A stretch of 64,000 nucleotides of DNA from Minutocellus sp. GHC0000111 (GCA_977018835.1 OZ361256.1:1984001-2048000), one strand, 5' to 3'. Shown: positions 2,350-53,961, numbered from the stretch's first letter. A program made the numbers and translations. The notes: generated by a model not told the origin, from the sequence alone.

Positions 2350-2415
2350 ATACCATCGTCTTCGCAAAACCACCGCGGCACCACCGGCCACAAACCACAA
2401 AAATGAGCAGCAACC

Positions 2416-4143: not shown

Positions 4144-6003
4144 CTATTTTACGTATCGGCCATCACCAAGCTTGAGTGCAAGGGGAGACGGCAACGAAAG
4201 CGGGTCTTCGTCTGCAACGCATATCTCATAAACACTGCCTGAATATTTGTACCTAACTGTCAAAGTTGGCACAGGCCCTCTCCTGATATCAGATGGGCAA
4301 TCGAATAGACCAAATGTAAATCTAGATACAACTCTTCGCCATCCAGATGAGGCAATGGTGCCCTCTTCGCTCTCAGGCACTGTTTGTCGTATATCATAGA
4401 AACCGAGTAAATTACAAAAGGCCGTCGCAGGCAACGCTAATCTCGAATTTGCAATCCAAAATTGCAATTGATTCGAAACGTCGAGTGAGTCTCCTCCTTC
4501 GACCTCATAAATTGCTCTCAAGATCACAAGGCCATCCTTCTTTTCTTCTACTTCTCGTTTCATTTCCGCCGGTCCCCTCATCAGGGCTACTTGCTGCTGT
4601 GCGTCAGCTCTCGCTTTATTCATTCCAGCTAAATGGGCCTCTTCTCGTCGAAGTGCATCCTTATTGTCCTTGGTATCGTCATCATCCTCCACGATGAAGC
4701 TCGAAGTCATTTCAGAAACAAAATCTCCAATAGCCTCGTCAATCAACAGAGACAAGAATGTCATGTACATGCACTTGAAATGATATCCAGGGCTGGTTAT
4801 CGAACTGATGCTGATAGGAATGCTGAATGTCATTTGTCCTCTTTGAATCCTCAACAGCCAAGTCAGTCCCTTGGCAGCTACGTGCTTGATGCCCACTGAA
4901 AACTTGCTGTATTTCGACAATACTCGAGTCATTACGCCCGATAGCTCAACACCCTTTGGTCCCCAGCCATACGAGAGCTGTCCAGAATGTGTCTTTGAGA
5001 AATCATGGTCCGCTGACAATCGAAGAGGGTAGTTATCGATGCCGATGTTAAGTTTGGCCGTATAGCGTGGCTTGGTTTGCAGAGATGTGAACTGCAGCAA
5101 CCCGTAGTGAAGGGAGAAGTCTGGCGATGAACATCCAACGGCCCAAGTACCTCGAACCGTATTTCGAAAGAGCGGTCGGTGCGATGAGAGTGAAAGTGCA
5201 AGCTTATCCGAGCCAGGCAGAGTCGATACAGATGTAGTAACGAGTGTCTGGCTCAGTAGTACTCTCGTGGAGCTGAGAGACACCTTTGCATTCTCGCCAA
5301 CATCGACATCGAGTGACATATCAGTTCCCTGCACAGGTGTATACCCAACTGATACTGATCCAGATCCACCAGCTTGCCCATTTTGCATATGTGTCGAGCC
5401 ACCAAAGGTGGTGCTCCATTTGCTATCATCGCTGTGCACTGTACCGACAGAGAAATTCATTGCAGCTTTCTCAACCTCTGGCAGTCCCAACGGTTCAGCT
5501 CCCTCATTCAAGAAGGCAGTATGGAGCATTGAACATCGAAGTTCAATTGATCCCGAGGCATCAATTTCGGATGACATGTGCTGATACTCATTGAATTGGA
5601 TCGCTTCATCAAGGACCTGCTTCGCCTCTTTTCGCTTGCCGACCTTATGAAGTCGAACCAGTTGCCGAAAGGTTGAGTTGGGATCTGACGAGTTCATACT
5701 TCGCTTCACGAAGTACACACCATAGTGCCCATGGTCGTCATATGCCTGTCTTAAGACCGGGTCGACCAGTATGTCATGGGCCACCTTGAACTCGACAAAG
5801 GTTGCCTGCGCATCTTCCCTCTTTCCTGGATCGGGCTGCTTGTCGGGATGGAACGCACGAGACAGATGCTTGTACGAGCGCTGGATATCATCCAGAGTTG
5901 CCGACGGGGCGACAGCGAGGACAGCATAGGGGCACTTTGGCTGAACCTTTTCGCCGTCCTCGTCCACTTCCCGTGGCCCGCCACCCCCGCTGCTGTTGCT
6001 CAT
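4144..6003 (-). CDS. DNAJC11: DnaJ subfamily C member 11 homologue
   Basis: J-domain (PYAVL..HPDKQ..RQAYD) and C-terminal GLVILRAIY..DVSNQLQFW..LLGFYD..LTVRY domain. Confidence 0.88.
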   Translation of the reverse strand: MSNSSGGGGPREVDEDGEKVQPKCPYAVLAVAPSATLDDIQRSYKHLSRAFHPDKQPDPGKREDAQATFVEFKVAHDILVDPVLRQAYDDHGHYGVYFVKRSMNSSDPNSTFRQLVRLHKVGKRKEAKQVLDEAIQFNEYQHMSSEIDASGSIELRCSMLHTAFLNEGAEPLGLPEVEKAAMNFSVGTVHSDDSKWSTTFGGSTHMQNGQAGGSGSVSVGYTPVQGTDMSLDVDVGENAKVSLSSTRVLLSQTLVTTSVSTLPGSDKLALSLSSHRPLFRNTVRGTWAVGCSSPDFSLHYGLLQFTSLQTKPRYTAKLNIGIDNYPLRLSADHDFSKTHSGQLSYGWGPKGVELSGVMTRVLSKYSKFSVGIKHVAAKGLTWLLRIQRGQMTFSIPISISSITSPGYHFKCMYMTFLSLLIDEAIGDFVSEMTSSFIVEDDDDTKDNKDALRREEAHLAGMNKARADAQQQVALMRGPAEMKREVEEKKDGLVILRAIYEVEGGDSLDVSNQLQFWIANSRLALPATAFCNLLGFYDIRQTVPESEEGTIASSGWRRVVSRFTFGLFDCPSDIRRGPVPTLTVRYKYSGSVYEICVADEDPLSLPSPLALKLGDGRYVK

Positions 6004-6412
6004 GCTGTTGAACTTTGCTGATTGAGCAAGAGGAATAAGACCACACAGAGCTCCGGCTGATGACGACGAGCATGAGAGCCGAAAAAAGGGTCGGTCAGGG
6101 AGGTTTGCGACTGCAGGTTGCAAACATTGACGACGGACAGACAGCAAGACACCCATTCCTCAATGCAATCTGCAAATCCCCATCGCATGCCATGGCCAGC
6201 ATTTTCCTCGCTCCCTCTTTAATATATATGTAGCCTCAACTCTTTAGACTAGAGGAGTAATTTTCATCATCAATCATGGCCAACCCAAAAAGCATCTGCA
6301 GTCAAATCGATCTACCGGTACCACCGGTAAATGCAAGATAAAAAATATGTTGTAAAATTTTCATTATCTTTGATTCGATTCTCTTCCTTTCCAATTTTAT
6401 AAGATCTACCGC

Positions 6413-12620: not shown

Positions 12621-12796
12621 GAATCGCCCATAAATAGAGTACCGGTACTAGCTAGTACGTGTAAAGCTCTAGATTTAGTACATGCATGCAATAAAAAGCA
12701 AAGAGAGTAGAAGCGAGTTACATGTTCATGTAATTTTTTCTCTCTGGTGGCGTGCCGATCTCTGGCATCTTGCGGTGGTGCGTAGCGCTCCATTTT

Positions 12797-12828
12797 CTAC
12801 GTACGTACGTACGTACGTACGTACGTAG
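12797..12828. repeat. (TACG)7 microsatellite forming a perfect 32-bp palindrome
   Basis: c-tacgtacg...tacgta-g read directly. Confidence 0.9.
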
Positions 12829-14280
12829 CATTTTGACCTGGATTTGTGCTGACTGACTCACTGCGAGCTTGGGCAAAGTGTGCTCTGGGAACAAAGAGAA
12901 AGAAAGTCCGGATTTCATTTTTTCCCAAGGATCTTCTTTGTGCTTCCTCAAACAAGGTCCCATTTTACAGTTTCTGGAATTGGCTTTCGCAATGATGCAG
13001 GTTTATGTCGCAACAGGCGTTTTAGCAGGTTTTGCGGGGGAATGAACCCAGGATTGACAAAAACACGACGCACTCAACAGCGCCGTTTCTGCCTGATTTG
13101 AATGGACGTGAAACGAGAGACGGTCTCGATCCTCCTTCCCTCGTCGTTGTTAGCACTCTTCCGGGCCAAGAAATGCGAATCAACTCTGCCACCTTGCAAC
13201 CTGAAATTCATCCATCGCATGCATGCATGCACACACACACAAAAGAAACATCACATCGATGTCGTCTCAGCCCTCGTCTCCGACGGGAGCCGCCCTCGCC
13301 ACGGCGTCGGAGCTGGCGGCCCGCCCTGTGCCTGCCCCCGCTGTTCCCCCGGCTTCGTCGGCTGCAGCCGGTGGCAATGGCAATGTCTCCAAGACCACCG
13401 ACGTCGGCCTTGTTGCCAGCACCGCTGCAGCCAGTGCTCCTGCTCGTCCCGGCGTCGGTCCACGTCAGAACTCCAAGAAGGAGCTGATGGAGTCGGCCCA
13501 CCTCCTTTGCTCCCTCTTTGGCGGCGGCGGCGGTGGTTCTGGCAGCAACTCTCCTTCTCGCACTGCCGCTCCTGCTTCTGCTTCTGAAGAAGCCAAGGCT
13601 GAGGCTGCTGTGCCTGCTGTTCCCCCTCCTGCCGCCCTCGTCCGTCACGGCAGCAAGGGACCACTCAAGAAGCGCATGATGATGCCGGTCTTTGACGATG
13701 CCGACGACGACGCTGAAGAGTCAGCCGCTAGCGCCAAGGAGGACGGCCCAACGAGTCTCAAAACTGCCGCTGTTGCCGCCGTGGCCATGCAGCGTCAGCA
13801 GCAGCAGCCGCAGAAAGAACCGAGTGCTGCACTCACTGTTTCTTCTAGCACCTCCACCTTCACCACGGGCACCGCCGGCACCCCCAACGGGGACTGCTGC
13901 ACCATCCTCTACACGCCCGGCGAGGACGAGATCTGCCTCAGCCCCCAGCTGTGCCTGACCCCGCCCAAATCGAAGCCTTCGAGGCCCAGCCCGCCGACGC
14001 ATCCTCCCGCCGTTCGGCCGGCGGCCGGTCCATCAGCCGGACCCTCACGGCAGGGCAGGTGGGTCTGCGGTGCATCCACTGCAAGCACCTGACCCTCCGC
14101 GACCGGTCCATGTCCGCCGTGCGCTGCCCCGGATCCATTCGCCTCGTGTGCCAACCAGTCCGTCCGCAACTTCCAACGCAACCACTTCCTCCAGTGCAAG
14201 GCCATGCCCCAATCCATCAAGGACGAGTTCCAGACCACCCGCTCCCGCTTCGTCCAGTCCAAGGGCCGCAGCCATGTGTG

Positions 14281-14327
14281 CGAGGTCGCGGACAGCAGTT
14301 TCAGGGACCCGGTTTTTGGGTCTTTGG
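14281..14327 (+). repeat. Left terminal inverted repeat
   Basis: Inverted copy at 18253-18300. Confidence 0.92.
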
Positions 14328-15405
14328 GCAAAATCTCATAAAAATCAGCACAAACGCACGCAGCAAGCAGCATTTGTTTGCTGTCGTCCTGTCTTCAAGA
14401 TGGCGGTGACGGCAGTGCCGACGGCATCCGCTTCACGCAAGGGATGCAAGGGATGAGCGTGGTGTCTCCAGAACGGTTTGGTCCTTGACCTTGGACCGAC
14501 TCGGAGACATCGATTTCATCTTCCCATGCCAGCGTCTGGCCGATTCACCCCATCCATCGCCCCTCCCGACTTCTGCCAGTTTTTCCGATGACAACCGGTC
14601 ACCTCCTCCACCTCCCGACCCCACCACCACCTCCCAAATGCATTGATTCAAGTAGCCATGTGGTTTGAGCTCCGACATCGGTCTCCATGGTCCCCATGGT
14701 GGCGCATCTTGTGCGGTCCGGGTGACCCCGCGCCAAAATCGAGCGGGCCAAAAAAGTCATCACCCACCCGGCGCGCCCGCCACTCAATGAAACCTTCCTC
14801 ATTTCCAACCCACCCGACATGCAAACTGTTGCTCTGCTGCCACAAAATACTGCATCCAACACCACATTAATGCAAATTGCTGTTGCTGCTGCTGCCACCG
14901 CAGCTGATGCGCCAGCATGTCGCCGCTCCCGTCGGTCCGGCAGCTCCATCCCATGCTTTGACTGTTTTGTCCATCGGAGCGGCACCATCGATGCCTCTGC
15001 GATTCGTGGCAAGTCTCCTGGGATGATCCAGACCATAGCGAACCGGGCATGGGCGGGCCTCTCACTTCAGAAACAGCAGGATGTTGTGGAGCAAGCCCGA
15101 GAGGAGGAGCTGTGCTGTCCGAGCCAGACCGGTCCTGATCCGGCACAAGATGTGCCGATTTCTCAAATTCAAATTGCTCGGCGCAATTCGTCATCCAACA
15201 ACGCCGATGCCAGCCCTGAGCCGACGGTCGAGGACAATGCTGGTGTCGCTGCTCGTCCTGGTGATGATGATGTCGAAGCTGGGGGCATCGCCGAGTCCAT
15301 GGTGGTGGATGGAAGCGGCAACAGTGAAGAATCTGGCAATCCTGCCAGTGTCGGTGTTTCTGCTCTACCGGCACCGCCAATTCTGGTGGATCGACCGGGG
15401 AGAAT

Positions 15406-16868
15406 TTGGACGTGCTGCTGGTTGAGGCCGAAGCGCAATGCAAAGCTGCAGAGGAGGCTTTGAAAGGGCTAAGGGACACCTTGAAACGAGAAAAGCGGAA
15501 GGATGAAAAGGCCATGGCCGATGCCGAGAAGAAAAGGAACAAAATGAAGGAGGCGATGCGTCATTTGGAGCAGAGGGTACAAATGCGTGAACATCTTCGG
15601 TCGCACAGGATGCCGACGGATGCACCACCCGAACGCAAGAAAGCAATGAGAATGGAAGATAACATGCGACCTGCCATCAGTACTGGGGAATGTGTCCTTG
15701 TGTCTGCCGACTTCAGTCCCAACATGAATCGGCCTGAGGGCAAGGGATTTGTTATGGTCAGTCGAGGTGTCGGTGGAGGCACTCTTTGCGATGTCCAGCA
15801 TGAGAAGCCTTTTGGTGGCATGATGCATAAGAATGTGCCTCTCAAGGCCATCACCCCGATCCCACTCGGCCTCAACACCGATTCAATTGCCAAGGACAGG
15901 CGCAAACGGACGGCAATTTACCGAATGGAAAGAAGCGAGTTCTCCTCGTGCATTACGATGAGAAATGGTTCTGGGGTCTCGTCCTCCGAGCTTTTGCGAA
16001 GGCTTGCGAGGAAATCGGCGTGAAAAAGCGAGATTACGTGGCCTTTCACAGGAGCCACATCAACAAGGTCATGGCCATTGCATTTGCTGCCGCTGTCTTT
16101 GACGGTTCTCTTGAGAGTGGGTGCAAGGTTGTAAAACTGCCACTGGTGCGAGCTCAAGCTCCTAAAATAGCGGAGCGAGCTCAGTGCGAAGCAGCATCAC
16201 AGCCTGATGGTTCAACACAGCACCCAAATACCAACCCCGATGGGACACCAAAGGAACCTCTTCGCCGGAAAGGAGAGTCGTTTCTTGTTGATTGTTGCAT
16301 TACTGGATCGAACGAAGGCACCAAAAAGGATCCGAAATGCTCTTTGCTCCTCGTATTCAAGGAGACTATTTTCCCAGCGATTCTCAACCTTGTCGGTCCG
16401 GGCAAGCAATACGAAGATTGCCATGTTATTATCCAGGGCGACCAGGCCGGGCCTCACGAGGACGGAACCTTCACGCAATTTGTTACTAACTTCTGTGCTG
16501 AGCAAGGCTGGACGTGGCAGCCACAGGCACCGCAGATGCCTCACGCCAACGTCCTTGACTTGAGCTTGTTCCCCGCGATGAGCCGGCGGCACTCGGAATG
16601 GGCACGAAAAATGGTAGGCACCTCCGTCATTTCCACCGACCAGATCTGGGACACTGCCGAGGACGTTTACGATAGCATGCCTAACTGCAAAATTGCTTCG
16701 GCCTTCATTCAGTACTGGAGGATAATGGGCCTGGTGATTAAGGCCGGTGGTAGCAATGAGTTTGTTGGAAGGTTGGGTGACGAAAACTTGCACACTGGAA
16801 TTAGGATCGACTTCAACGAAACGGCCAAGGGGATGGAGCCCTCAGCTCGTCATCCTTCTAATAAATAG
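15406..16868 (+). pseudogene. Tc1/mariner transposase, frameshifted and probably internally deleted near 15920
   Basis: HYDEKWFWG, QGDQAGPH and QAPQMPHANVLDLSLF; 38 residues between the second and third Asp. Confidence 0.88.
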
Positions 16869-16963
16869 ATAGTATTAATATCTTTACACATGTATTAAAT
16901 AAATGTTACACATCTACAAATTATTTATAGATCTACATGTAAGATGCAGCAGCATTGGTTTGT

Positions 16964-40836: not shown

Positions 40837-43488
40837 ATGGACACTACTACCGATGCTGTGACCGCCTCGTCGACATCGGCCGCCGCAGCTGCCGGCTCCT
40901 CGGCATCAACGCCAGTGAACAAGGAGGCCGATACCAAACAGAAGGATGCGTCCGCCGCTGACGCAAACAGTACTATGGCCGCCGCCATCGTGGACGGTGG
41001 CAAGACGGTCGGGGTTACCGTCAAGGTGGACGGTGGCGTCGTCGAACCTCAAGAAGAGCAGGCGGAGGACGCGGCGGCCGATGGCGCCACCGCCAAAAAG
41101 TCCAACCAAAAGTCCGGCGGGGGGGGGCAAAGAAGAAGCCCGCCCAAGAAAAGTGCACCGATCCCAACATCACCGCCGACGAGGACAAGGACCTGGCCTT
41201 CATTTGGATCTGCACCGAATGTCGCGAGGCCGAGTGCCTCACCGACCCCGACTCGCCCCTCCTGGTCTGCGAGGGACCCTGCCAGCGTCCCTTCCACTAC
41301 CCCTGCGCCGGACTGAACGCCGTCCCGCCCGAGAACGAAACGTGGATTTGCAACGACTGCAAGCAGAACCGCCATCAGTGCGCCGTGTGCAGTGAGTACG
41401 GTGCCGACGACGAGGAGGTGTTCAAATGCGACCGTGCTACTTGTGGGCTGTACTTTCACGAGAATTGTTTGGCCATGTACGAGAACGTCGACATGACCAT
41501 TGTGGAACGGACTGTGGAGACCAAGGAGGTCGATCCCGATACCGGTAAGGAGGTTGTCACGGGCACGCAGGTCATCTGCCGGCCCAAGTTCAAATGTCCG
41601 GCCCATACCTGCTGGTGTTGCTCTGGTGGGATGCCCCCCGATCCAAATGCCGCGGCTGCGACGGATGCAGATGGCGGCGCTTCTGGTGGTGATGGAGGTA
41701 CCGACGGTAAGGATGGGACCAGTCCCAAGGTCGGTGCCAAGGGCAAAAAGGGTGGCAAGAAAGGCAAGAAGAGGAAGAAGGCCAAGGTTGACAATGCCTT
41801 TGGAGAGAAAAAGGAGCAGCTATTCGTAAGTGCTGATTTGTGTTGGGTTTTGTATTGTTTTTTGTATTCTACAATGTACTTTTTAGATCACGTCCTGATT
41901 CTCACTTTGTTCAATTTCCCTCTTATTGTATTATTTCATTGCCTTGCCACAGCGATGCCTCGACTGCCCCATCGCCTATCACATCACGTGCATCCCGCCG
42001 TGCACTCGCTTCCACAAGCTCGCTCTACTTTGTCATGAGCACTACACCAACAAGCTGCCCGATCTGGATACCGAGAGCTCCTTCCAGGCCGAAGTGGAGG
42101 CCAAGGCCGATGCCATGGTGGAGGAGATGCGCGAGAAGAAGCGTCGCAAGCTGGAGCGGCTCAAGAAGCAGAAGGAGAAGAAGGACGATCACTACGAAAG
42201 CATTGGCTTCAACAAGTTCCATTTTGGTATGAAGGGTACGGCCATCTCGGAGGCTAAGCAAGATATCCGCCTCCTTGACGACTCTGATACCGTCGAAGCT
42301 CCGACTTCAAATGCTGATGGTCAGGAAGAAGGCGATTCGGCTGCAAGGCCTGTCAAGAAGCTCCGCCAGGTCGAGTTCTGTCTCCCCTGCGACTTTCAGC
42401 AGGATGTATATTCGAAGCCACCCAGTTACACACACGTCCACGGCCTCAAGTACGACCCTGCCAACCGGCCCAAGAAGCATCCTCCTACCAATGAGGTTTG
42501 CAAGTGCAAACCATCTGGTAAGGACGGCGTCGTTACCTGCGACGATCATTGTCTGAACCGCATGGTAATGACGGAATGTGTTGGCGACAAGAGCAAGAGC
42601 GAGAAGAATCCGTACTGGAACTGCAATGCCGGACCCAACTGCGGCAATCGTGCCATTGGACTGCGCAAGTATGCCAAGTGCCGCCCGAAGCGTGAACAGG
42701 GCAAGGGCTGGGGCCTTGTGGTTGTAGATGGTGTGAAGAAGGGCGGTCTCGTCCAAGAGTACGGTGGTGAGGTCATTGATGAAGCGACCAAGGAGGCTCG
42801 TCTCGCCGAGTGGGCACGAGATCATCCCAACGATCCCAACTTCTACATCATGAGTCTCGAGCCAGGATGGTACATCGACGCCAGAGTCAAGGGCAACCTC
42901 GCCCGATTCATCAATCACTCCTGCGGTCCAAATTGCCATCTGGTGCCCACCAACGTTGCGGGCAATATGAGGGTAGCGGTAGTTGCTCTTCGCGACATCA
43001 AGCCTGGCGAATTCCTTTGCTACGACTACCAATTCGACACCAAGCATGGTGACAAGTTCGTCTGCCGTTGCGGTGCCCCCAACTGCCGCGGGACCATGAA
43101 AGGCGGCGAGAAGGGTGGTGTCGGCGGCGTCGAAGCGAAGAAGACCAAGAAGCAGCTGTGGGCTGAGGCCAAGGCTCGCTATGATCGTGACAAGAAGTTC
43201 CTTGACGACCTAGCCGTGGATCAAGTGACTCGGTTGAATCAGACCGGCCTGCTTGTCCCCGGCGAATTCCAGCAAAAGGATAGTTCCACCATGGTAGCCA
43301 GTGGTCCTCAGGAGAAGGACCGTGATTATGCCCAAGGCCGCCGTATCTTCCTTTGGCGCAACGTTTATCCAGGATCCAACTTTTCGTCGAGGTATTGGAA
43401 GTTTGAGGATGCCAAGAAACACGCCAAGCAAGGGCCCACAGCTTCGTTGCCAAACGTTGATGTGCTCTCGCAAATTAGGGGCTCCTAG
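40837..43488 (+). CDS. NSD/ASH1-type histone H3K36 methyltransferase (PHD fingers, AWS, SET, post-SET); intron about 41826-41953; frameshift in G-run near 41120
   Basis: KCPAHTCWCC, CLNR..EC, GKGWGL, EYGGEVI, GNLARFINHSCGPNC, YDYQF, CRCGAPNCRG. Confidence 0.92.
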
Positions 43489-44549: not shown

Positions 44550-44611
44550 CGATGACACATCGAACACAGCACCTCCCTCCGCAAATGAAACTTCTTAGAC
44601 GGGTTTGAGGG
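44550..44611. repeat. Split direct repeat B2
   Basis: cgatga..catcgaacacagcacctccctccgc plus aaatgaaacttcttaga also occur at 44857-44889 and 44974-44990. Confidence 0.85.
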
Positions 44612-44615
44612 AATT

Positions 44616-44856
44616 TAAAACTAACTAACTACTGAGAGAGAGAGAGACAGGCTCTGGGAGCCGGTACTGTAAGCTGACTTAGCAATTGCAACGGCAGCAA
44701 TCGCAGATGGTTTTGTGGTTTGCTTGGTCAGTTTTGAGACGACGAGAGGAGGCGAAGGTGGTGGTCAGCAGAAAAACTGGGCACTACAGGAATGCAGTTT
44801 TAGTGCCTGCTGCTAACCACCGTCGCCAGCTCATCCCCACCGTGCGGCACCCACAA
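44616..44856. repeat. Split direct repeat A2
   Basis: Near-identical to 52686-52913 apart from small indels and one CA/TA difference. Confidence 0.95.
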
Positions 44857-44998
44857 CGATGATGCATCGAACACAGCACCTCCCTCCGCTGATTCTCCCA
44901 ACTCCATGCAACTTACTTAGTAGAACATGAAAAATGCAGTTTAACTACGTGAACTGGAGCTGGCATTGGCGGTAAATGAAACTTCTTAGAGGGTGAGG
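44857..44998. repeat. Split direct repeat B1 (84 bp longer than B2)
   Basis: Matches B2 at both ends; 44890-44973 is absent from B2. Confidence 0.85.
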
Positions 44999-45049
44999 TC
45001 CCTCTCCCCCTCCTCCTTTCCGTAGCACAGATCGGCCAACAATGTGTGT

Positions 45050-46200
45050 CGTGCTTAGGTGAACAGGGCGAAGGGGGCATTGGAGTCCCGAAGCCGGCAT
45101 TTCGGCCAATGCTGTTGTTGATGCCGGCGAAGGATTGGCGGCAATTTGGGGTCCTTGGGTCTTCGCGATGGCTCGTCGAGTGTGCGTGGGGCACGTTGAA
45201 GAAGGAACCTCGTTGGATCATGCGTGTGGAGACTCCGGATGTAAATTCTTGGACCTGGCGACGGATGTGCTTGAGGAAGGCGTCACTGGACCACCGCCCT
45301 ACCAGCATGATTGTGTGCGTGGGAACATAATTTAGACACATTGCCATTGCTGCTCCGCTGCGAATGGAGTGTGATCCGAATTCAGAGGGATGGCAGCCCA
45401 GGACGTCCTCTCCAATCACTGTGGCCGACGCTCGGATCTTGTCAACTATTCGGGTGGGGCAGGAATGTGTTTTAACACGCCGTTGACCACGAAGGCATTT
45501 ACCGGCGCATCGCTGTTGGTACTAGGGTGCCCTAGGACTCGTTTCACCAGGGCAGCCCAAGCTCGAACTGGGCAGAGGGTGGCGTCGTGGGTGCAGTGTT
45601 GCGTAGTCGTGACGTCACGCTCGTCGTTCTTCTGGAACTCAAAGGTGACGGAGACAGAGTCTGCTGAGAGGAGGGACCGGTGGTCGTTGTGATGCATGCG
45701 CCGTCGGCCGCGGCAGAACTGGATGTTGCGGAGGCGGAGCAGCTTGGTCCTGCGCTCACCGCTGACTCTGGAGTGTTCGCAAGACCTCATCGCGAAGAAG
45801 AAGGCGCCGACGGCTAGTTGCCCGACTGCACGGTCCTCTTCCGTTTCCCTGACGGAGGCGATCTCTCGGAGGAGCCGGCAGGTGATCGCCTTCTCCGGCC
45901 ACTCGGCCGGGTCGGACTGGCTGTGTCCTCGGAACTGCCGCTGTAGAAGGAATGAAGGCTGGCCGATGTCGTCTTTCCCTGGGTCCCTGCGCTGGTTGTG
46001 CCGGAAGGAAGGACGAGCATGCACATGTGAGACGGCATCTCGGACTGTCGACGCAGCCAGTCGCGAAAACTTTGGCCCCGAAAAGCTGGCCTGTCGGACG
46101 GCGTGGGCAAAGGCGCCGAGAATGACTGTTCGGTCTCGGGGTGACACCTTGTCGAGGAAGACGTCGTCCCCGGTCCCGATGAGCTGCAGGAACTCAGTCA
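45050..46200 (-). pseudogene. Ngaro tyrosine recombinase, frameshifted, catalytic Tyr replaced by His
   Basis: FFFAMRSCE, FEFQKND, LCPVRAW, HSIRSGAA, GRWSSDAFLKHIR. Confidence 0.9.
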
Positions 46201-48380
46201 GTCCAGCGGCTCCACGCGAGAGCGTGCTTCTCGGCTGTGGCCGTTGCAACTGCTTCCTGATGGGCAGCGTCCGCGCCTGCGAGACAATCCAGGAAGTAAT
46301 CTCGTTGGGCAGTGGTGCAATCCTGAAATTTGAGGGAAGCTGACATTCGGGAGATGACAGAAGCAATTTCGTGAGGTCAGCATCAGAGAGATCGGTGTCA
46401 CGAGAAAGAGAATCGGCCTCCGGATTGCGCTTCCCCTGGAACCACTGTGAGCACAGCATGGTGTTGGTCTCGATGAGCATGTCGGCTAGTTTCCGCGCCG
46501 TGGCCAGCTTGACCGCTACGTCGGCATCCTTCTCGCCGTGAGACACGAAGTTCGACTTCCTGAGCCATCCCTCGGCCGTGGTGCTGTCGGTCCCTGACAG
46601 TGCGCAGGAGAGGGTTGGTAGGTTGCCCTCGATGTGGTCGATCCATGGGCCAATGACGGCGGCGAGGAATTCCAGGTAGTTGAGGGTGAACCGGCCCCAT
46701 GGCTCCTCGGGGAGGGCAAATCTTCACGCTCTGCCGGATGAGGACCATCCGCCGATGCCGTGCTCGCAGGCGTCACTTGTGTGCTCGTGGGTGGGGCAAC
46801 GGCACGTGAGGAGGTTCATGCTCATGCCATCGGCGGCCCTTCGGAGGAAGCGGAGCCATCCACAGGTTGAGGTCTTCTGCATCCTCAGAGTCGAACCGTT
46901 GGCGGCCGTGGCGGCGGGCCTTCCAGAGCCGATCCCGAAGGCGGCTGAGGAAGTGTCGTGCGGCTGGAATGATGTGTCCGACGTGGTTTAGCCTTCCGAC
47001 CAAGGTGTCCAGCTCTGATCTGGTGGCGCCGCGGGCTCTGAGGAGCATGTCATCGCGCCAGGCCAGGCACTTGCTCCAAGGGAGCCAGCCTCAGCAGGAG
47101 CCGCCGGGTGTCAGCATCCCACCCCAAGAGACACAGCACTTCGGAAGGCGTCCCTCGGCGAGCAGCTTCTTGATGGAGGCAAGGTCATCTCTGGGCAGTG
47201 GCTCGCTGTCGGACACCGGTCGGCCAAGCGCGTGGATGGCGAGGAGGGTGGCAGCGGACATCCGATCCTTGTTGTCGCCCAGGTCAGGGGCTGCGGCGAT
47301 GAGGTCATCGATGTGCGGCTCGACGATGCCATCCTTGTTGTCGGGAAGGGTTGCGATCATGTCCAGCGCCGGCGCGAACGGTGCATCGTCGCCCTCCACC
47401 TTGGGGCGACCCAAGTGCTTCTGCTGGGGGCATGGAGCTCTGACGGGTCCCAGTCCGAGCATTGCAGGAGGGCCCTGGCCAGGTCGGCCGCCGATTCGGA
47501 CATGTTGCACCATTCGCTCGGGCAAGGGCGTCCGCCGAAAGTCAGCCGGAGGGACATGAGGGCAATGCCATCCAGGGTGGTGATTGTTTTGACGGCCGTG
47601 CTGGGAGCCAAGTGGGCCCGGCGACACGCAGCCTTGAAATCGACCTTCTGCAGGAGGATGGGAGCACGGGGATGCTTGTGACGGGTGTCTACGATGTAGT
47701 GGATCACTCGCCGGAGGGCATGGCCGAACACCACTGGCTGGTGGTCCTCCATGCGTGCTCTGTTGTTGACGGACCGTGCGGCACCGATCTCGAAGGATTG
47801 GTCGTGAGTCAGGCGGTCCTTGGGCATGATCTCGCCAGCCTCGCTGATCGTGCTCTGTGCTGCCAAACCCATCAAGCCACCTCCGCTCCAGGAATGAGGG
47901 GCGCGACCTTTGCTGGCAGAGGGAGGACGAAACCGCGGGTCACGTCGTCGAGAACTTGGTCCTTGAGTGCCTCCGGCCTGTCCCTGGCCGATTTGTGGTT
48001 GCCTCGGCCGATGTTCTTTGTCACGCTGTCCAGTCTGCTTTCGTCGCTCACCGGATCGAGGGCCCAGTCGGATCCACTGTCGAGAATGGAGCGGAAGCGG
48101 GGCCACAGCGGGTGCCGGCCAAGAATCGGCTCCAGAAGACTCAGGTCTCTGAACTCCGATCCCGGTTGGAGTGGCGACCCGCCCTGCGCCTCGAGTGCCC
48201 TGCTCAGAGAACGATCGTGTTTCTTGAGGACCGACCAATTGTGAGCGGCGGCCTCCGTCAAGAGCTCAAATCTGAACTCCGTGGGCTTCGGTGTGGCCGA
48301 CGGGGACTCGACTGCTCGTCGGACGCACTGTGCCAAGGTGGAAACATCGAAGATGGGCTCTAGTTCCCACGTGGAATTGC
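46200..48380 (-). pseudogene. Ngaro reverse transcriptase/RNase H, multiply frameshifted
   Basis: RGNHKSA, KDRLTHDQSF, KVDFKAACRR, RLTFGGRPCP, PHIDD (YxDD position), VGRLNH, SDACEHGIGG, LNYLEFLA, DSTTAEGW, NPEADSLSR. Confidence 0.9.
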
Positions 48381-49017
48381 ACAAGGCGAGAAAAAGGTGA
48401 GATGTGTGCATGCTGCACGTTCACGAGCACACGGGTCTGTCCGACCATGGTGGGCCCATTGTGGGCGCTGGGCTGCCCCGTTTGTTGTAGAGGTGTTTCT
48501 TCACCTGTTGGTCTCACTTGCCATTTTGGCGTGTCGGTTCTGCTTCCTTGCTGTGCACAGGGGAACCAGGGGGAGACTGTGCTTCGGGTTGGGGCTGCTT
48601 GCCTAGGAGATCCTTCTCTCGCTGGCCTAGCCGGTCGAAGAGGTTGTCGGTGGCTTCCGCACCGCCAGCGTCAGTGGTGCTGGAGCCAGAGCCTGAGATG
48701 CTGTTGTCGGCGCAGGCATCACCGCTGGTGTTAGGGGGACCAGGACCCGACCGAAGGTCACTGCTAACGCCTCGGCCTTCTGCTCCGGTGTTAGGGGCAC
48801 CGGAGAGCCTGGATTGGTTGCTGATGTCGTTGCGACCGCACACGCCGGATTTTGGGGTGCCGGACAACCTTGGGCGGCTGGAGCCACCGGGGCGGATCGA
48901 CGCCGACGTGTCTGGCTGCACTCGACGGCGCTTGGAGGGACGAGCTCGGCCGGCTGGCCGAGATGTTTCTCCAGCATCCTCCGAGGGTGGGCCACGCCTC
49001 TGTGCCCACCCGATCCG

Positions 49018-51069
49018 TCATTCCTCCGCCTCCTCGCACTTCCGATCGCATTTCTCGACGTGCTGCTCGACGGGTCCTCTCTCCGATGCCTTAAGAGGCC
49101 TCTTGACATGCGACTTCTTGAGCTTACACGAGGATCCGGCGCCGCAGACACCTGTCAGGATGAATGGAGGGCAGAATTTACAGCCATTAATTTCAGGTCT
49201 GTCCTCATAGGGCTCGGATTTCTTGCCATGCCGTTTTGCAAAGTTGCCGGGGTTGATGTCGAACGTGACGAAGTGTTCGTGCTGGTGGGCTCTGCCGCTG
49301 GCGCCGCCCGTCTTTTGCTTCTTTTTCGGACTGGTTCTTGGCTCTGATTTGTCGGAGTCGGAATCCGAGGAAGGGGTGGGAGCGTCGGCCGATTGGACGA
49401 GCTTGATGTGGCTGGGGTAGACGAAAGGATTCTGAGTCTTCATTGTCATTTTGGACTCGTCGGCCATTGAGAAGCAAGAGAGGTCGTTGCCGGCGTCGTC
49501 GGGGGAACGGAGACAAGCTTTCCAGAATGCATGGATGGAGGCGTCGACATTGTGGAACATCGCCAGCCAGAACTTCTCGCCATGGCTCTCGGCGATGTCG
49601 CGGCACTGGTCCTCGTGTGTCTCCATGTGACTGAGGACCCTGGCGACGTAGCGAGCGGGCTCGGAGTCCTCTCCGGCAAGGAAGGAAGTGCCAGCGCCGA
49701 AGGCCGAGATGTGACGTTTGGCACCGTCGCACTCGGTTGGGGACCGGCGGTTCTGCTTCAGAAGAGCCTTCACCTGAGTCGAGGCATGTCCTTTCTTTTG
49801 AGAGGCGGCGAGGTGCAGGGGCGCATTGCTGCTGCTGGAGTTTGCCGGGCTAAAGGCGAAGACAGAGAAGCCATCGTAGATTTTCTTGTCGCTCTTCCCG
49901 AAGCCAAAGAGGCGGACGTAAGTGGTGAGGCCCTGGAGAGATGTCCTGACTCCGGTCTTGCCCTTTACATGCAGCTCGAGGCCGACAGCTGCTTGCGTGA
50001 GGTTTGACTCTTCCAGCAGTGCTTTCAATCCTTCGGGAAGATTCGAGTCGATCGCTGCTACATCATCGTCATGCTCGGTCGAGACCCGGCAGAAAGCGGC
50101 ACAGGCCTTGAGGATGGCGCCATTCATCGAGTGCTTCTTGTCGACCTTGTCAGTGTAGGCCATGACTGCGCCGGTGAGGGAGGATGCTTCGGACGCGGCC
50201 CTAGTCATGGCGTTGGCCGCGGCAGCAACTGCAGAGTCGGTCGGGGCGCCACCGGCTGGTGGTCCGTCGCCACTGGCGCCAGTGATGTGCCGAGCGTGCA
50301 TCTCACGGGCGCATGTCTTGAGAGCCGGGTCCGTCGTTGGGTGCAAGCTGACGGCCGGGATGTCACCTTGCTCGGACGTGGCGACGAACCACAGCCACTT
50401 GACGACGTGTTGAACAGCCTCATTGGAGCGAAGACCTGCTGCACCATGACCCTCGTCGTCACCGCTGTCTGATGCGTCGTCGCTGCCGGCGTCCTCATCC
50501 AGCCGACGTTTGATGGCGGACAGGATGGCCCAAGGCGATGCCTCGTGCTCTTCCAGAACATTCTGCAGAATCGAAGGTGGCAGCTGCACAAGGGACTTAA
50601 ACTTCGTGGAGGCACTCCGGTGGCGGGTGTTGGAGCCTTCCTGGGTGAGACCGGTTAGGGCGGCTTCTGACGGTGCCCCCAGCATGGCTTCCACCGATGG
50701 GGCTAGGACCTCCTTGTGCCGCAAGAGGCTAGGTTGGGCCAACGACATTGCCGGGGCTACATCGTCGATCCCGAGGAGCCCACCCAACCTGAGGTCGGGC
50801 TGCATGGTGGTGCCTCCCTGAGCCACGGCATGGTGAATCACCACGACTTTCCCTTCTGGATGGTGGGCCAGCATGGACAAACCCTCGGCGTCGCGGATTT
50901 GCTGCTGGATCGCTCGGGCATGGCTCTGGACCACAGCGGCCGTGGGGTCGGTTTCACAGACGTTGTCGGCGAGGAATCTCTGGAAATCTCGAGCCACGGC
51001 GGCGTCGGGCCCGGCCGGCATCTCTTGTGCCAGCAGGACTGACTTCCAGGTGTTGAAAGATGAAGCCAT
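49018..51069 (-). CDS. Ngaro ORF1 (gag-like) with C-terminal CCCH-type finger
   Basis: About 683-aa ORF upstream of pol; FCPPFILTGVCGAGSSCKLKKSH. Confidence 0.8.
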   Translation of the reverse strand: MASSFNTWKSVLLAQEMPAGPDAAVARDFQRFLADNVCETDPTAAVVQSHARAIQQQIRDAEGLSMLAHHPEGKVVVIHHAVAQGGTTMQPDLRLGGLLGIDDVAPAMSLAQPSLLRHKEVLAPSVEAMLGAPSEAALTGLTQEGSNTRHRSASTKFKSLVQLPPSILQNVLEEHEASPWAILSAIKRRLDEDAGSDDASDSGDDEGHGAAGLRSNEAVQHVVKWLWFVATSEQGDIPAVSLHPTTDPALKTCAREMHARHITGASGDGPPAGGAPTDSAVAAAANAMTRAASEASSLTGAVMAYTDKVDKKHSMNGAILKACAAFCRVSTEHDDDVAAIDSNLPEGLKALLEESNLTQAAVGLELHVKGKTGVRTSLQGLTTYVRLFGFGKSDKKIYDGFSVFAFSPANSSSSNAPLHLAASQKKGHASTQVKALLKQNRRSPTECDGAKRHISAFGAGTSFLAGEDSEPARYVARVLSHMETHEDQCRDIAESHGEKFWLAMFHNVDASIHAFWKACLRSPDDAGNDLSCFSMADESKMTMKTQNPFVYPSHIKLVQSADAPTPSSDSDSDKSEPRTSPKKKQKTGGASGRAHQHEHFVTFDINPGNFAKRHGKKSEPYEDRPEINGCKFCPPFILTGVCGAGSSCKLKKSHVKRPLKASERGPVEQHVEKCDRKCEEAEE

Positions 51070-51559
51070 GGTGATCAATGCTCGACCACCTTGCCTGTCG
51101 CCTTTGGCGTCGGTCCTCTCGGCGCTGGATGTGGTTCAGATCGGCCGTGAGGGTGAGGATGCGGTCGGCGATGTCGGGCTCTCCAAAGGCGGATAGAAGG
51201 ATGTTGAATGCCTGACGCGGTGGCTCTGATGCCAAAATATCGGCGGTGATATCTCGCAGGCGGATAGGTGCCTCGAGATCGTCGGGGCGCCGGTGAATTG
51301 ATGCTCTTGGCCAGACGCGGCAGTGGGCACCCTCCCAGCGATTTGGATCGGCCGTGTCGTCTAGCCACCTCGGATAGACTCGATGGTAGGTGCCTACCCA
51401 GCGGTGTGAGGGGGACGCCGTTAGATCTGCCAGCCTTCCCCCCAGTGTTCGTACGGGTTGACCTCCACTCGGTGTCCAAGAGGATTGCTGTCAGGCCGAA
51501 TGTGTCGGAGTCGAGCGCTGGTGAGGCTCTCGAATCCACTGTCCCAGTTGATAATAGCT

Positions 51560-52516
51560 TCAGTGAGTTGGTCCGGTCGTAGGTGCTGCCGTCTCTGGAA
51601 CGAATGGGTACGGCGAATCCAGCGGGAACTGGGTGATCAGGGCGAAAGGGCCGATGAGATCTCCTCGCTCCAATGCCACACTGACGCCAGCCCGCTCGGT
51701 TCGGTCGTGTGCGTCACGTGGGTAGAAGAGTGGCCTTACCTCCCACTCGAAATAAGTGAGCGGCAGCGTTGGTGGAAGCTCGCTCCCCCGTGAACCTATG
51801 CAAGCGTACGGTGTCGGCTCTAGAGGTCTGCCCTCTCTGGCCGCGATGCGCCGTCTTTCTTTTCGGTCGGCCTGGTAGTGGAGGATGCACTGCGTGAGCC
51901 GGCAGAGCTGGGGCCAGATGCAATGGTGTTGCCGCGCTGCTGCTACCGATGCCTCCGGACACCTTCGCCCCCGACACTGTTGAACCACGACGCCTCCGTC
52001 TGCCCGTGGTAGTCGGTACAGTGCACTGCTCAGGTCCAACTCAGTTGCCGTCTCGTGTGCCCGGCGGATCTCAGGCTCGTTAAGGCGCATGGCTATCAGC
52101 CAGATGTTGACGAGGTGCGTGGGCCAGTCCGGTGACACCAAGAAGGCTTGTTGCTCGAGGTACTCGGCGACCAGACCGTGCGCTGCTGGAGCAAGGTGTG
52201 AAACGGCTGCTGCTGGGGATGGCTGGTACCCCGTGGCTCTCGATGGGAGGTAGCCTGTGGCGCGCTCGACGAGATCGGTGAGGTACTCGGTAACGTCGAT
52301 TCGGCCCTCGGCAAAACTTTTCCACCAATCCAGTGCGTCTGTGGTCAGTCTCTCGGACGACGCCCTGGCTGTGAAGAAACTTCTGCGCACGGGCCGAATC
52401 GGACGTCTGAGTCTGTCCCAGCCTCGTGGAAGGTCAGGAGAGTCTCCTCGGACGATGAGGTCTCTTGCCACTCCGAACAACACGTGATCCAGTTCCGGCC
52501 GATCTGGTTCGGCCAT
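51560..52516 (-). CDS. Extra ORF of unknown function inside the Ngaro 5' region
   Basis: About 318-aa ORF between A1 and gag, on the same strand. Confidence 0.5.
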   Translation of the reverse strand: MAEPDRPELDHVLFGVARDLIVRGDSPDLPRGWDRLRRPIRPVRRSFFTARASSERLTTDALDWWKSFAEGRIDVTEYLTDLVERATGYLPSRATGYQPSPAAAVSHLAPAAHGLVAEYLEQQAFLVSPDWPTHLVNIWLIAMRLNEPEIRRAHETATELDLSSALYRLPRADGGVVVQQCRGRRCPEASVAAARQHHCIWPQLCRLTQCILHYQADRKERRRIAAREGRPLEPTPYACIGSRGSELPPTLPLTYFEWEVRPLFYPRDAHDRTERAGVSVALERGDLIGPFALITQFPLDSPYPFVPETAAPTTGPTH

Positions 52517-52685
52517 GCACTGTTCTGCCGTCGTAGAGACTGGTATCGGATCTACGTGCACTATCAACGGAGCTGAGCCGTGGCCGTTTGACTCCGGAGT
52601 CGACTGCGGTCTCTGGACTAACTAACAGCAGTGGTGGTGTGTCGGCCAATAATTACGAACTCGTAGAGTAGCACCAACCTAATGC

Positions 52686-52913
52686 TAAAACTAACTAACT
52701 ACTGAGAGAGAGAGACAGGCTCTGGGAGCCGGTACTGTAAGCTGACTTAGCAATTGCAACGGCAGCAATCGCAGATGGTTGTGGCTTGGTCAGTTGAGAC
52801 GAGAGGAGGCGAAGGTGGTGGTCAGCAGAAAAACTGGGCACTACAGGAATGCAGTTTTAGTGCCTGCTGCTAACCACCGTCGCCAGCTCATCCCCACCGT
52901 GCGGTACCCACAA
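52686..52913. repeat. Split direct repeat A1
   Basis: taaaactaactaactactgagagag...gcggtacccacaa, a copy of 44616-44856. Confidence 0.95.
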
Positions 52914-52956
52914 AGGTGGCCCAAGGCAAGAGTTGATAACCAGCCTGCACTAAGCA

Positions 52957-53961
52957 ATGAAGAGGCCACGATCTTCTGCCATTGGTGTTGTGACCGCTAG
53001 TGGCATTGCTACTGCTCTATCCAAACTCTCAGCTCACTCATTCGTCTTGGCACCGCAGGCACCATCACCCCCACCCCACCGGCGGCGGCGGCTGCTCACA
53101 TTGCTGCACCAATCATCGGTGTCCTTCTCGGACCTTGCGCGCGATTATGAGACTCGAGTGGAACCAGTAACGACCATGTTTCTGGAGGAAATGATTGAGC
53201 CATTTACCTTTGAGGCCGGCGATAATCGACTTCTCGATGTGGGCTGTGGATGTGGTGGCGGTGCCTTACATGCTGCCAAGGCTGGCTTTGCTGTGACGGC
53301 AATCGACAATTCACCCGCTTTCATCGGCAGATTGTCGGAACGATGCGACGAGCAACAAGAAGATGAATCCTTGAGCATAAGAGTTCAGGTTGCCGATGGT
53401 CAAAGCATGCCGACAGAATTCACAAGTGAATTTGACTTTGTCGTGTCCAGCTTTGCCCTCGTATTCTTTCCTGATCCATTGGCTGGATTGCAGGAAATGC
53501 ACCGTTGTCTTGTGCCTGGAGGTCGAGTGGCGATATCTGGATGGGGCGATAGGGGCGACTCGCCGGCATTTCGAATCATTCCCGATGCGGTGCGAGCAAC
53601 AGCCCCAGAGCTTATATCTGCAAGCAGCAAGAAGAAACCATTTCTTCGTACTCCCGAGGAAGTGGTGACCCTCATGGAACAAGCTGGCTTTGTCGATATT
53701 GAGATCAAGTCTGATATTAAGCGAACCCTAGCAATTTCCACGGCACAAGAATACTTTGAGAGATTTGCAATGGGGTCGCCACCGACTCGGAGTATGATGG
53801 TATGGATGCGAGATAACATGGGTGAGGATACTGTGACCAAATTCAAGGATGAAGTGATGAAGCTTGCGGTTGAAAGAGGTAGCTGCAAGCCAAATGGTCC
53901 GATAGAGATTGTATCTCCGGCCTACATTGTCTATGGAAGCACAAAGAAGAAGGAAACTTGA
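52957..53961 (+). CDS. Class I SAM-dependent methyltransferase with probable organelle leader
   Basis: LLDVGCGCGG, AIDNS, FDFVVSSFALVFFPD..LQEMHRCLVPGG. Confidence 0.88.
   Translation: MKRPRSSAIGVVTASGIATALSKLSAHSFVLAPQAPSPPPHRRRRLLTLLHQSSVSFSDLARDYETRVEPVTTMFLEEMIEPFTFEAGDNRLLDVGCGCGGGALHAAKAGFAVTAIDNSPAFIGRLSERCDEQQEDESLSIRVQVADGQSMPTEFTSEFDFVVSSFALVFFPDPLAGLQEMHRCLVPGGRVAISGWGDRGDSPAFRIIPDAVRATAPELISASSKKKPFLRTPEEVVTLMEQAGFVDIEIKSDIKRTLAISTAQEYFERFAMGSPPTRSMMVWMRDNMGEDTVTKFKDEVMKLAVERGSCKPNGPIEIVSPAYIVYGSTKKKET

Follow-up and report, generated by a model that had tools for sequence, protein, structure and literature searches.

Recurrent, copy-specific A:T to G:C changes at TAY sites in a Ngaro-type retrotransposon and a second repeat family

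The window analysed here is a 64,000-nucleotide stretch of Minutocellus sp. GHC0000111 (OZ361256.1:1984001-2048000), of which approximately 51 kb is host sequence. It contains a Ngaro-type tyrosine-recombinase retrotransposon at 44550-52913 and, at approximately 13.0-16.9 kb, part of a second repeat family, here termed TE2. In both repeats TA dinucleotides have been lost in a particular context, RTAY above all (R, purine; Y, pyrimidine), through changes that recur from copy to copy. A previous interpretation made from the sequence alone (the sequence-only reading) had proposed context-specific conversion of TA to TG or CA across positions 45000-51230 by a process targeted to repeats. The features of the retrotransposon are as follows (ORF, open reading frame).

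44550-52913, minus strand: Ngaro-type tyrosine-recombinase retrotransposon of 8364 bp; this copy is degenerate and frameshifted when compared with most others
52686-52913, minus strand: terminal repeat A1, at the 5' end in element sense; one substitution relative to 44616-44856, the remaining differences being indels
51560-52621, minus strand: ORF1, 353 amino acids, no known family; the lightly mutated part of the window copy
49018-51135, minus strand: gag-like ORF, 705 amino acids, no Pfam match
47091-48420, minus strand: reverse-transcriptase region, in three frames; homologues found
44913-46201, minus strand: tyrosine-recombinase region, in two frames, from homology and the fold of a relative
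44857-44889, minus strand: repeat B1, 33 bp, downstream of the tyrosine-recombinase region; differs from B2 only in ATGC versus ACAC
44616-44856, minus strand: internal repeat A2, from direct-repeat alignment; the A repeats span 228-241 bp
44550-44582, minus strand: terminal repeat B2, at the 3' end, a 33-bp direct repeat
44666-51237, no strand: zone saturated for RTAY loss, with 62 TA of which 1 is RTAY (expected share 0.22, p 3.6e-6)
45519-45522, no strand: GTAC, the only surviving RTAY in the zone; it lies in the first codon of a stop-to-stop frame and is the sole G|TAC of the gag-like, RT and YR frames

The direct repeats are split in the order A1...B1-A2-B2, with the internal repeats downstream of the tyrosine recombinase (YR). 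This layout defines Ngaro and PAT elements, Ngaro being set apart from DIRS and PAT by the missing methyltransferase domain (PMC4157794). No Pfam match to a methyltransferase domain was obtained in any element ORF, although silence of Pfam is weak evidence here as the reverse transcriptase (RT) and YR were missed too. Pfam searches of all element ORFs and of intact relatives gave no RT or YR match, and the RT alignment, searched as a profile against PDB, gave 0 matches; both domains were identified through fold searches with models of relatives. In the RT family alignment the window is 45-53% identical to the P0012 family, and the predicted structure of P0012 (approximately 50% identical, pLDDT 76.8) matches 7o0g_A (E 2.6e-5) and, at E 2.6e-5 to 1e-3, the RTs of foamy virus, MLV, HIV-1 and Ty3. 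Similarly, the predicted structure of the YR relative P0050 (pLDDT 80.5) matches Cre (1crx_A, E 6e-8), XerH and Tn1549 integrase (E 6e-8 and above), and the profile of the relatives aligns an HxxR...W...Y segment to Cre residues 288-327 (E 0.03). On these models the element carries an RT domain, and a tyrosine recombinase in place of an integrase, both as in Ngaro elements. Annotators should be warned that such elements escape the Pfam models for RT and YR alike.

In the window copy pol is read across several frames, and small indels relative to other copies occur at 47151, 47873, 46003 and elsewhere. In contigs of runs X1 and X10 (one sample) 44549 is followed immediately by 52914, the 8364 bp being absent; this element-free form indicates that the insertion is polymorphic or heterozygous, even though the copy is full of indels relative to other copies. 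The insertion lies between an NSD-like gene with PHD and SET domains (40962-43488) and a class-I SAM methyltransferase gene (52954-53961), both recognized by Pfam; no link to the mutational signature is claimed.

The core of the element (45000-51230, 6231 bp, GC content 0.61) contains 50 TA dinucleotides, an observed/expected ratio of 0.22, while the left flank (1-44000) has a ratio of 0.58. Core TA contexts are 1 RTAY, 10 YTAY, 17 RTAR and 22 YTAR; in the left flank 549 of 1419 TA are RTAY and 173 are YTAR, and across host sequence of the window RTAY makes up 676 of 1745 TA (39%). One RTAY among 50 TA falls below both the share of 0.223 predicted by the dinucleotide content of the region itself (binomial p 5e-5) and the host proportion (Fisher p 1.8e-9). 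The sequence-only reading had counted one RTAY among approximately 45 TA in 6.2 kb, and the recount gives one in 50, the GTAC at 45519-45522; the observation is confirmed and is stronger than stated. Its further statements, that the ORF at 45446-46546 lacks Tyr (0 counted) and that C or T precedes each of the nine Tyr codons surviving in the gag-like, RT and YR frames, were reproduced. The gag-like ORF has 6 Tyr (0.85%), each after C or T, alongside 31 His and 14 Cys. The proposed span corresponds to the saturated core but not to the whole affected element, which is larger and keeps 11 RTAY in its 5' 1.7 kb in the window copy; the ORF1 encoded there retains 10 Tyr, with G|TAC at 6.

When 4-mers were counted on both strands of the core and compared with the number expected at host density, the strongest losses were those of ATAT (observed 0, expected 48), ATAC/GTAT (0, 37), AATA (1, 44), GATA (1, 43) and GTAC (2, 44). 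AT-rich words without TA fell only to 0.3-0.5 of host density, and AT, AA and TT were not depleted at all (observed/expected 1.01-1.05). TAG was the best-kept TA context (CTAG 10, GTAG 11 and TTAG 6 of the 50). An excess of TG over CA on the plus strand of the core was considered as a mark of the process and rejected; it is seen in all contexts and thus reflects strand composition.

To establish polarity, window frames were aligned to 171 lower-identity relatives, those with 40-70% identity being used for direction. Tyr is the residue of at least half of the relatives below 70% identity at 8 columns, and the window retains it at none of these: five are His, two Cys and one Pro. A purine precedes all seven His or Cys codons (R|CAY or R|TGY). 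Overall the window keeps 341 of 388 conserved columns, Tyr to His and Tyr to Cys being the commonest changes, and the contrast between Tyr columns (0/8 kept) and other conserved columns (341/380) is marked (Fisher p 3e-8). Single-step transitions at conserved columns ran from A or T to G or C in 12 cases and the reverse in 1. The YxDD column, Tyr in 19 and Phe in 9 of 28 relatives, is His in the window (47313-47315), a motif-A Tyr column is Cys (47624-47626), and the column aligned to the Cre Tyr in ...NYIRN, which is Tyr in 29 of 31 relatives, reads CAC (His) at 45267-45269. Outgroup polarity together with the lost Tyr columns indicates that change ran from TA to CA or TG. This bears out the suggestion that these His and Cys positions should be Tyr, the comparison with relatives being in its favour, and likewise the direction originally proposed. 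Loss of the YxDD and nucleophile Tyr residues, also proposed, holds for the window at both columns, but at the nucleophile the His is not fixed in the family.

Tyr content is 0.28% in 14 close copies, 2.1% in the 171 distant relatives and 2.12% in host ORFs. Close copies are proteins with at least 85% identity on other contigs, their kinship to the window genome being drawn from near-identity among other grounds. A relative with 75% identity, P0053, keeps Tyr at 4 of 4 covered columns. Of the words of the Ngaro element, a fraction of 0.27 was present in the run of a further organism, C. The recombinase and pol relatives P0073, P0046, P0044 and P0056 (60-84% identity) contain 0-0.9% Tyr and carry Cys where the window has His, P0073 at the nucleophile column, so that several subfamilies seem to have been affected independently.

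The sequence context of change was determined from contigs mapped to the window. The variant spectra are samples, comprising the best-supported 40 of 153 variant rows for the Ngaro element and the best 40 of 53 for TE2 (contigs on 14600-16900). Transitions accounted for 32 of 40 and 37 of 40 differences, respectively. Those at T[A/G]Y or R[T/C]A numbered 9 of 32 in the Ngaro element (expected share 0.08, p 7e-4) and 20 of 37 in TE2 (expected share 0.10, p 3e-11), an excess of transitions at the target context among copies of both. CpG-type transitions (13/32 and 10/37) were not above expected shares (p 0.14 and 0.61), and decay of 5-methylcytosine was rejected as the driver.

The simplest statement of the rule is A to G at 5'-TAY-3' on either strand, equivalent to T to C at 5'-RTA-3'. 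Under this rule RTAY offers two targets, YTAY and RTAR one each and YTAR none, and survival in the core relative to host density is 0.90 for YTAR, 0.35 for RTAR, 0.20 for YTAY and 0.013 for RTAY, approximating the series 1, p, p, p squared. Of the YTAY-type sites of TE2, the 7 that vary all alternate between TA and TG, RTAR-type sites alternate between TA and CA with one extra TG, and no YTAR site varies, in each case among the rows sampled. Among the Ngaro rows two further events follow the rule and two depart from it, which brings the total in agreement to 12 of 15. Context dependence and use of both strands, as the sequence-only reading had it, are thus confirmed, and its palindromic target RTAY is indeed the most depleted context, but the half-site TAY (RTA on the other strand) fits better. 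Occasional Tyr to Arg changes in ORF1 fit hits on both strands of one site. Not every A to G change conforms to the TAY rule: in TE2 the window reads TGGT (14698-14699) and AAGT (14756), against TAAT and AAAT in most copies, a hint that A in other contexts is subject to a weaker activity.

Recurrence was evident among copies of the Ngaro family. For both repeats, multi-copy status is taken from the many distinct protein copies; summed contig depth on the repeats, though much greater than on the contig that spans the empty site, is not a copy number. Among close copies the YxDD column has His in 4 and Cys in 2, the motif-A column has Cys in 6 and Tyr in 1, and among 203 variable site-alternatives the His/Cys type, a two-base difference, ranks third in frequency with 7. 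In 20 related ORF1 proteins Tyr, His and Cys are mixed at every G|TAC codon. Purine-preceded Tyr sites have become His or Cys in 28 of 49 Tyr/His/Cys calls and pyrimidine-preceded sites have changed in 10 of 38 (Cys 7, His 3); His/Tyr (10) and Cys/Tyr (10) are the two commonest of 165 alternatives, and the pattern is private to each copy. The products were 23 His and 23 Cys, indicating that the two strands were used equally. Strand coordination within copies, as expected of a processive single-strand deaminase, was not detected for His versus Cys in ORF1 (statistic 33 versus a permutation mean of 32.0, p 0.39; few sites).

At the DNA level, other copies have GTAC where the window has GTGC (45269 and 45317), GTGC where it has GCAC (47137-8 and 49604-5) and ACAT where it has ATGT (49787-8), and, conversely, GCAC or GTGC where the window keeps GTAC (52017 and 52285). 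The nucleophile codon, whose first base is at 45269, encodes Tyr in all X1 depth (one contig) and in 72% of X10, whilst X2 and X17 contigs read as the window at 45267-45269. The nucleophile His is therefore carried by the window copy and some others and is not fixed in the family. Within the window copy the sole substitution between A1 and A2 is GTAC (A1) versus GCAC (A2), and the only difference between B1 and B2, ATGC versus ACAC, represents the two products of one ATAC.

The same signature was observed in TE2, which is unrelated to the Ngaro element and has the following features.

13024-15577, plus strand: TA-depleted part of TE2, with 11 TA in 2554 bp, 1 of them RTAY
15328-16868, plus strand: TE2 ORFs, with a DDE_3-like transposase lead at 15831-16868

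The 4-mer losses of TE2 match those of the Ngaro core. For the ORF spanning the edge of the depleted part 24 related proteins were found on many contigs, 22 of them at 81-97% identity, and His, Tyr and Cys alternate at codon 38 (His 11, Tyr 4, Cys 3), codon 122 (His 4, Tyr 1) and codon 158 (His 6, Cys 1). Three sites, 14865-6, 15268-9 and 15439-40, occur in all three states (TA, TG and CA) in contigs, and at 15578-9 the X1 depth of 6019 divides into 2906 GCAC and 3113 GTGC. The transposase-like end at 16.2-16.9 kb is near-invariant, with 2 of the 40 sampled variant rows beyond 16200, and keeps RTAY in all copies seen, unlike the adjoining 2.5 kb. In the Atlas the downstream ORF lies close to DDE_3 clusters (0.92) and to a Bacillariophyta cluster (0.94), and Pfam gives no match; this feature-similarity lead suggests that TE2 may be a DDE-type DNA transposon. 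No convincing terminal inverted repeats were found at its ends and its limits are therefore not set. Just upstream of the depleted part lie a perfect (TACG)n, GTAC-rich microsatellite (12798-12828) and GTAC clusters (12640-12680), and at this edge the contrast in RTAY density is sharp within 200 bp.

Both repeat families in the window (2/2) are affected, while host ORFs and flanks are not. In host ORFs 106 of 202 Tyr codons are purine-preceded, and TA is normal (observed/expected 0.60-0.62) in the host intervals 18-20 kb and 23-25 kb, which match the depleted segments in GC content. Nor was the signature present in any of 80 related RT loci from metagenome contigs (40-55% identity), which have TA observed/expected ratios of 0.34-0.94 and RTAY shares of 0.16-0.36. 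Contigs derived from Illumina RNA-seq reproduce the TG and CA states of the assembly, and none of the differences sampled from them in 49155-50311 restores an RTAY; this agreement argues against the basecalling or polishing artefact that the sequence-only reading had allowed for. RNA-labelled runs contain contigs of both repeats, which as contigs cannot show transcription or editing. Elsewhere in the host sequence, two convergent neighbouring genes at 2407-4083 (plus strand) and 4144-6159 (minus strand) both encode a DnaJ-like C11 C-terminal domain.

The changes thus have one direction, follow one context rule, differ independently between copies, use both strands equally and are absent from host genes and from the 80 related loci of other origin. 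Their recurrence at TAY in individual copies of two unrelated families probably results from a host process acting on repeat DNA, comparable to repeat-induced point mutation (RIP) but opposite in direction. Such a process would convert A:T to G:C at TAY on either strand and would work on chromosomal DNA rather than RNA; the equal strands and the DDE-type target favour action on DNA over action on RNA that is later reverse-transcribed. Being repeated, or being silenced, may mark the target, and an enzyme would presumably perform the change. The enzyme could be a DNA-acting adenine deaminase of TadA/ADAT type, converting A to hypoxanthine, possibly via a modified A. Alternatively, a modified thymine or adenine on silenced repeats could mispair at replication, as oxidised T pairing with G would. 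A lesion on A and a lesion on the paired T would leave the same trace in sequence.

Several observations can be ordered in time. In the saturated gag-pol-YR core many changes are common to copies, which suggests that they are old and inherited, whereas the 5' ORF1 region is altered at a different subset of sites in each copy, suggesting recent change. The nucleophile Tyr kept in most copies and lost in the window copy fits mutation of a single copy set against selection in the mobile lineage. The presence of a second affected family in the window is a prediction of a repeat-directed process and supports it.

Other findings weigh against a repeat-directed host process. Three of the 15 events at half-site or non-target TA break the rule (15269, 50995 and 48672). 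Restriction to repeats is drawn from two families and approximately 51 kb of host sequence in one window, the DNA-transposon identity of TE2 is a feature-similarity lead without a Pfam match, and the variant spectra sample the best-supported 40 of 153 and 40 of 53 rows. The picture is complicated by parts that are spared, RTAY being kept at 16.2-16.9 kb of TE2 and the 5' part of the Ngaro element being only partly affected; a process driven purely by homology, such as RIP, would have reached these parts as well, unless selection or age accounts for their escape. Many of the core changes are also common to copies (for example the motif-A Cys in 6 of 7), implying that mutated elements were still copied, perhaps mobilised in trans. 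As a proposal, selection in mobile lineages, or differing ages of modules, would explain both the spared parts and the shared changes. The interpretation offered from the sequence alone is thus supported in part: context, direction and recurrence stand, the palindromic target has given way to the half-site TAY, and targeting to repeats agrees with the second family and the unaffected host genes, though in one window.

Of the alternatives, a passive origin is unlikely. Here no dedicated system would exist, TA being removed passively by biased mutation or repair in silent chromatin or by GC-biased conversion among copies. The depleted segments are GC-rich (0.57-0.63), the differences are mostly transitions, and residues with AT-rich codons are less frequent in close than in distant copies (Asn 2.4 versus 4.5%, Ile 3.7 versus 6.1%, Lys 3.2 versus 5.5%), all in favour of such a bias. 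It would not, however, leave AT, AA and TT undepleted, spare YTAR while RTAY drops approximately 80-fold, or bypass equal-GC host regions with normal TA, and the three-state sites within 2.3 kb need a very high site-specific mutation rate, beyond biased fixation.

Selection for motif avoidance is improbable. By this account, loss of RTA/TAY would allow escape from a host nuclease, a silencing factor or a UA-cutting RNase, and depleted lineages would proliferate. Avoidance of palindromic motifs is a classical mark of restriction pressure, and the many core changes common to copies indicate that depleted elements did spread. Yet conserved RT and recombinase residues have been destroyed, private losses are found in single copies (including the nucleophile Tyr that most others keep), and the host genome is itself rich in RTAY. 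Each ORF1 copy has a different random subset of changes with both product forms, which inserted copies cannot gain by selection.

Quite improbable is RNA editing followed by reverse transcription, whereby A to I changes made by an ADAR- or ADAT-like enzyme in element transcripts would be written into the genome. In favour of this, the predicted RT fold indicates that the Ngaro element replicates via RNA, element contigs are present in RNA libraries, and a preceding U is the usual context of ADAT and TadA. Only A to G on the sense strand would be inherited in this way, whereas sense T to C and A to G are equal (His 23, Cys 23); TE2, which resembles a DDE transposon, bears the same signature, and the element's own terminal repeats differ only at target sites. 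ADAR prefers TAG, with a 3' G, and TAG is the best-preserved TA context here. Finally, an artefact of basecalling or polishing at a modified motif, such as the systematic A to G miscalls seen at methylated motifs in some long-read assemblies, or an intrinsic composition of the retrotransposon clade, is largely refuted and very improbable, as Illumina RNA-seq and contigs of other runs show the same TG and CA states, Tyr is likewise lost from predicted proteins of many other contigs, and 0 of 80 related loci have the signature.

A host process acting on repeat DNA thus remains the preferred explanation. That it amounts to a dedicated 'reverse RIP' defence in a diatom-like protist, in which a natural DNA adenine deaminase or a modified or oxidised thymine erases Tyr codons and TA signals copy by copy, is a tentative extension. 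Known repeat hypermutation is C to T, by RIP in fungi and APOBEC in vertebrates, or A to I on RNA, by ADAR. No report of TA to TG or CA (A:T to G:C) hypermutation of repeats was found in the literature searched, which did not extend to subscription journals, and within that searchable literature the A:T to G:C direction at the DNA level is new relative to known repeat-directed hypermutation. If true genome-wide, it would represent a new chemistry of eukaryotic genome defence and a natural enzyme turning A:T to G:C in DNA, would account for GC-rich, Tyr-free 'fossil' transposons in this lineage, and would provide an index, RTAY versus YTAR, with which to find the process in other genomes and to date transposon activity.

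RIP depends on a DNMT-like enzyme (RID/DIM-2) and on the sexual phase. Fungal RIP, in ascomycetes, and the RIP-like TCG hypermutation of Microbotryum are the closest known systems (PMC3318451, PMC5381629). Context-specific transitions on both strands, specific to each copy and with loss of coding, are shared with them, as are, within this one window, the occurrence on repeats and the sparing of host genes. RIP converts C:G to T:A (CpA to TpA), raising TA and lowering GC, whereas here A:T becomes G:C at TAY and TA is removed; the C to T changes, raised TpA and lowered GC that mark RIP are not what the core displays (TA observed/expected 0.22, GC 0.61). Parts of the repeats are spared here, unlike in RIP, and the host is no fungus but, on the weak lead of one Atlas cluster label, a diatom-like protist; a NARF-like host protein gave no information on taxon in the Atlas.

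The footprints of ADAR (A to G) and APOBEC (G to A) in retroelements (PMC4866542, PMC2873906) likewise consist of deaminase-type transitions with a neighbour preference, fixed in genomic retroelement copies. They arise on RNA or minus-strand cDNA, are strand-asymmetric and affect retroelements only, whilst here the strands are equal and a DDE-like repeat is affected too. The context here is TAY, TAG being best kept, and the A to G on the transcribed strand, confinement to retroelements and 3' G of ADAR hyper-editing were not found.

TadA and ADAT are adenosine deaminases of tRNA, and in bacteria mRNA editing recodes Tyr TAC to Cys at TACG. Change of A to G after T or U and before C, with visible recoding of Tyr to Cys, is common to these enzymes and the process considered here, and the TAY context fits a deaminase of this type, a lesion on A being inseparable from one on the paired T. 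These enzymes act on RNA loops and on one strand, as distinct from DNA and both strands here, with T or C after the A and over thousands of bases. In dinoflagellates a TET/JBP homologue lays 5-hydroxymethyluracil on transposable elements, for which the accessible part of the source reports no mutational footprint or TA context (PMC11572971). The likeness lies in chemistry of the A:T pair tied to repeat silencing, and this system demonstrates that thymine chemistry on protist repeats exists (PMC11572971).

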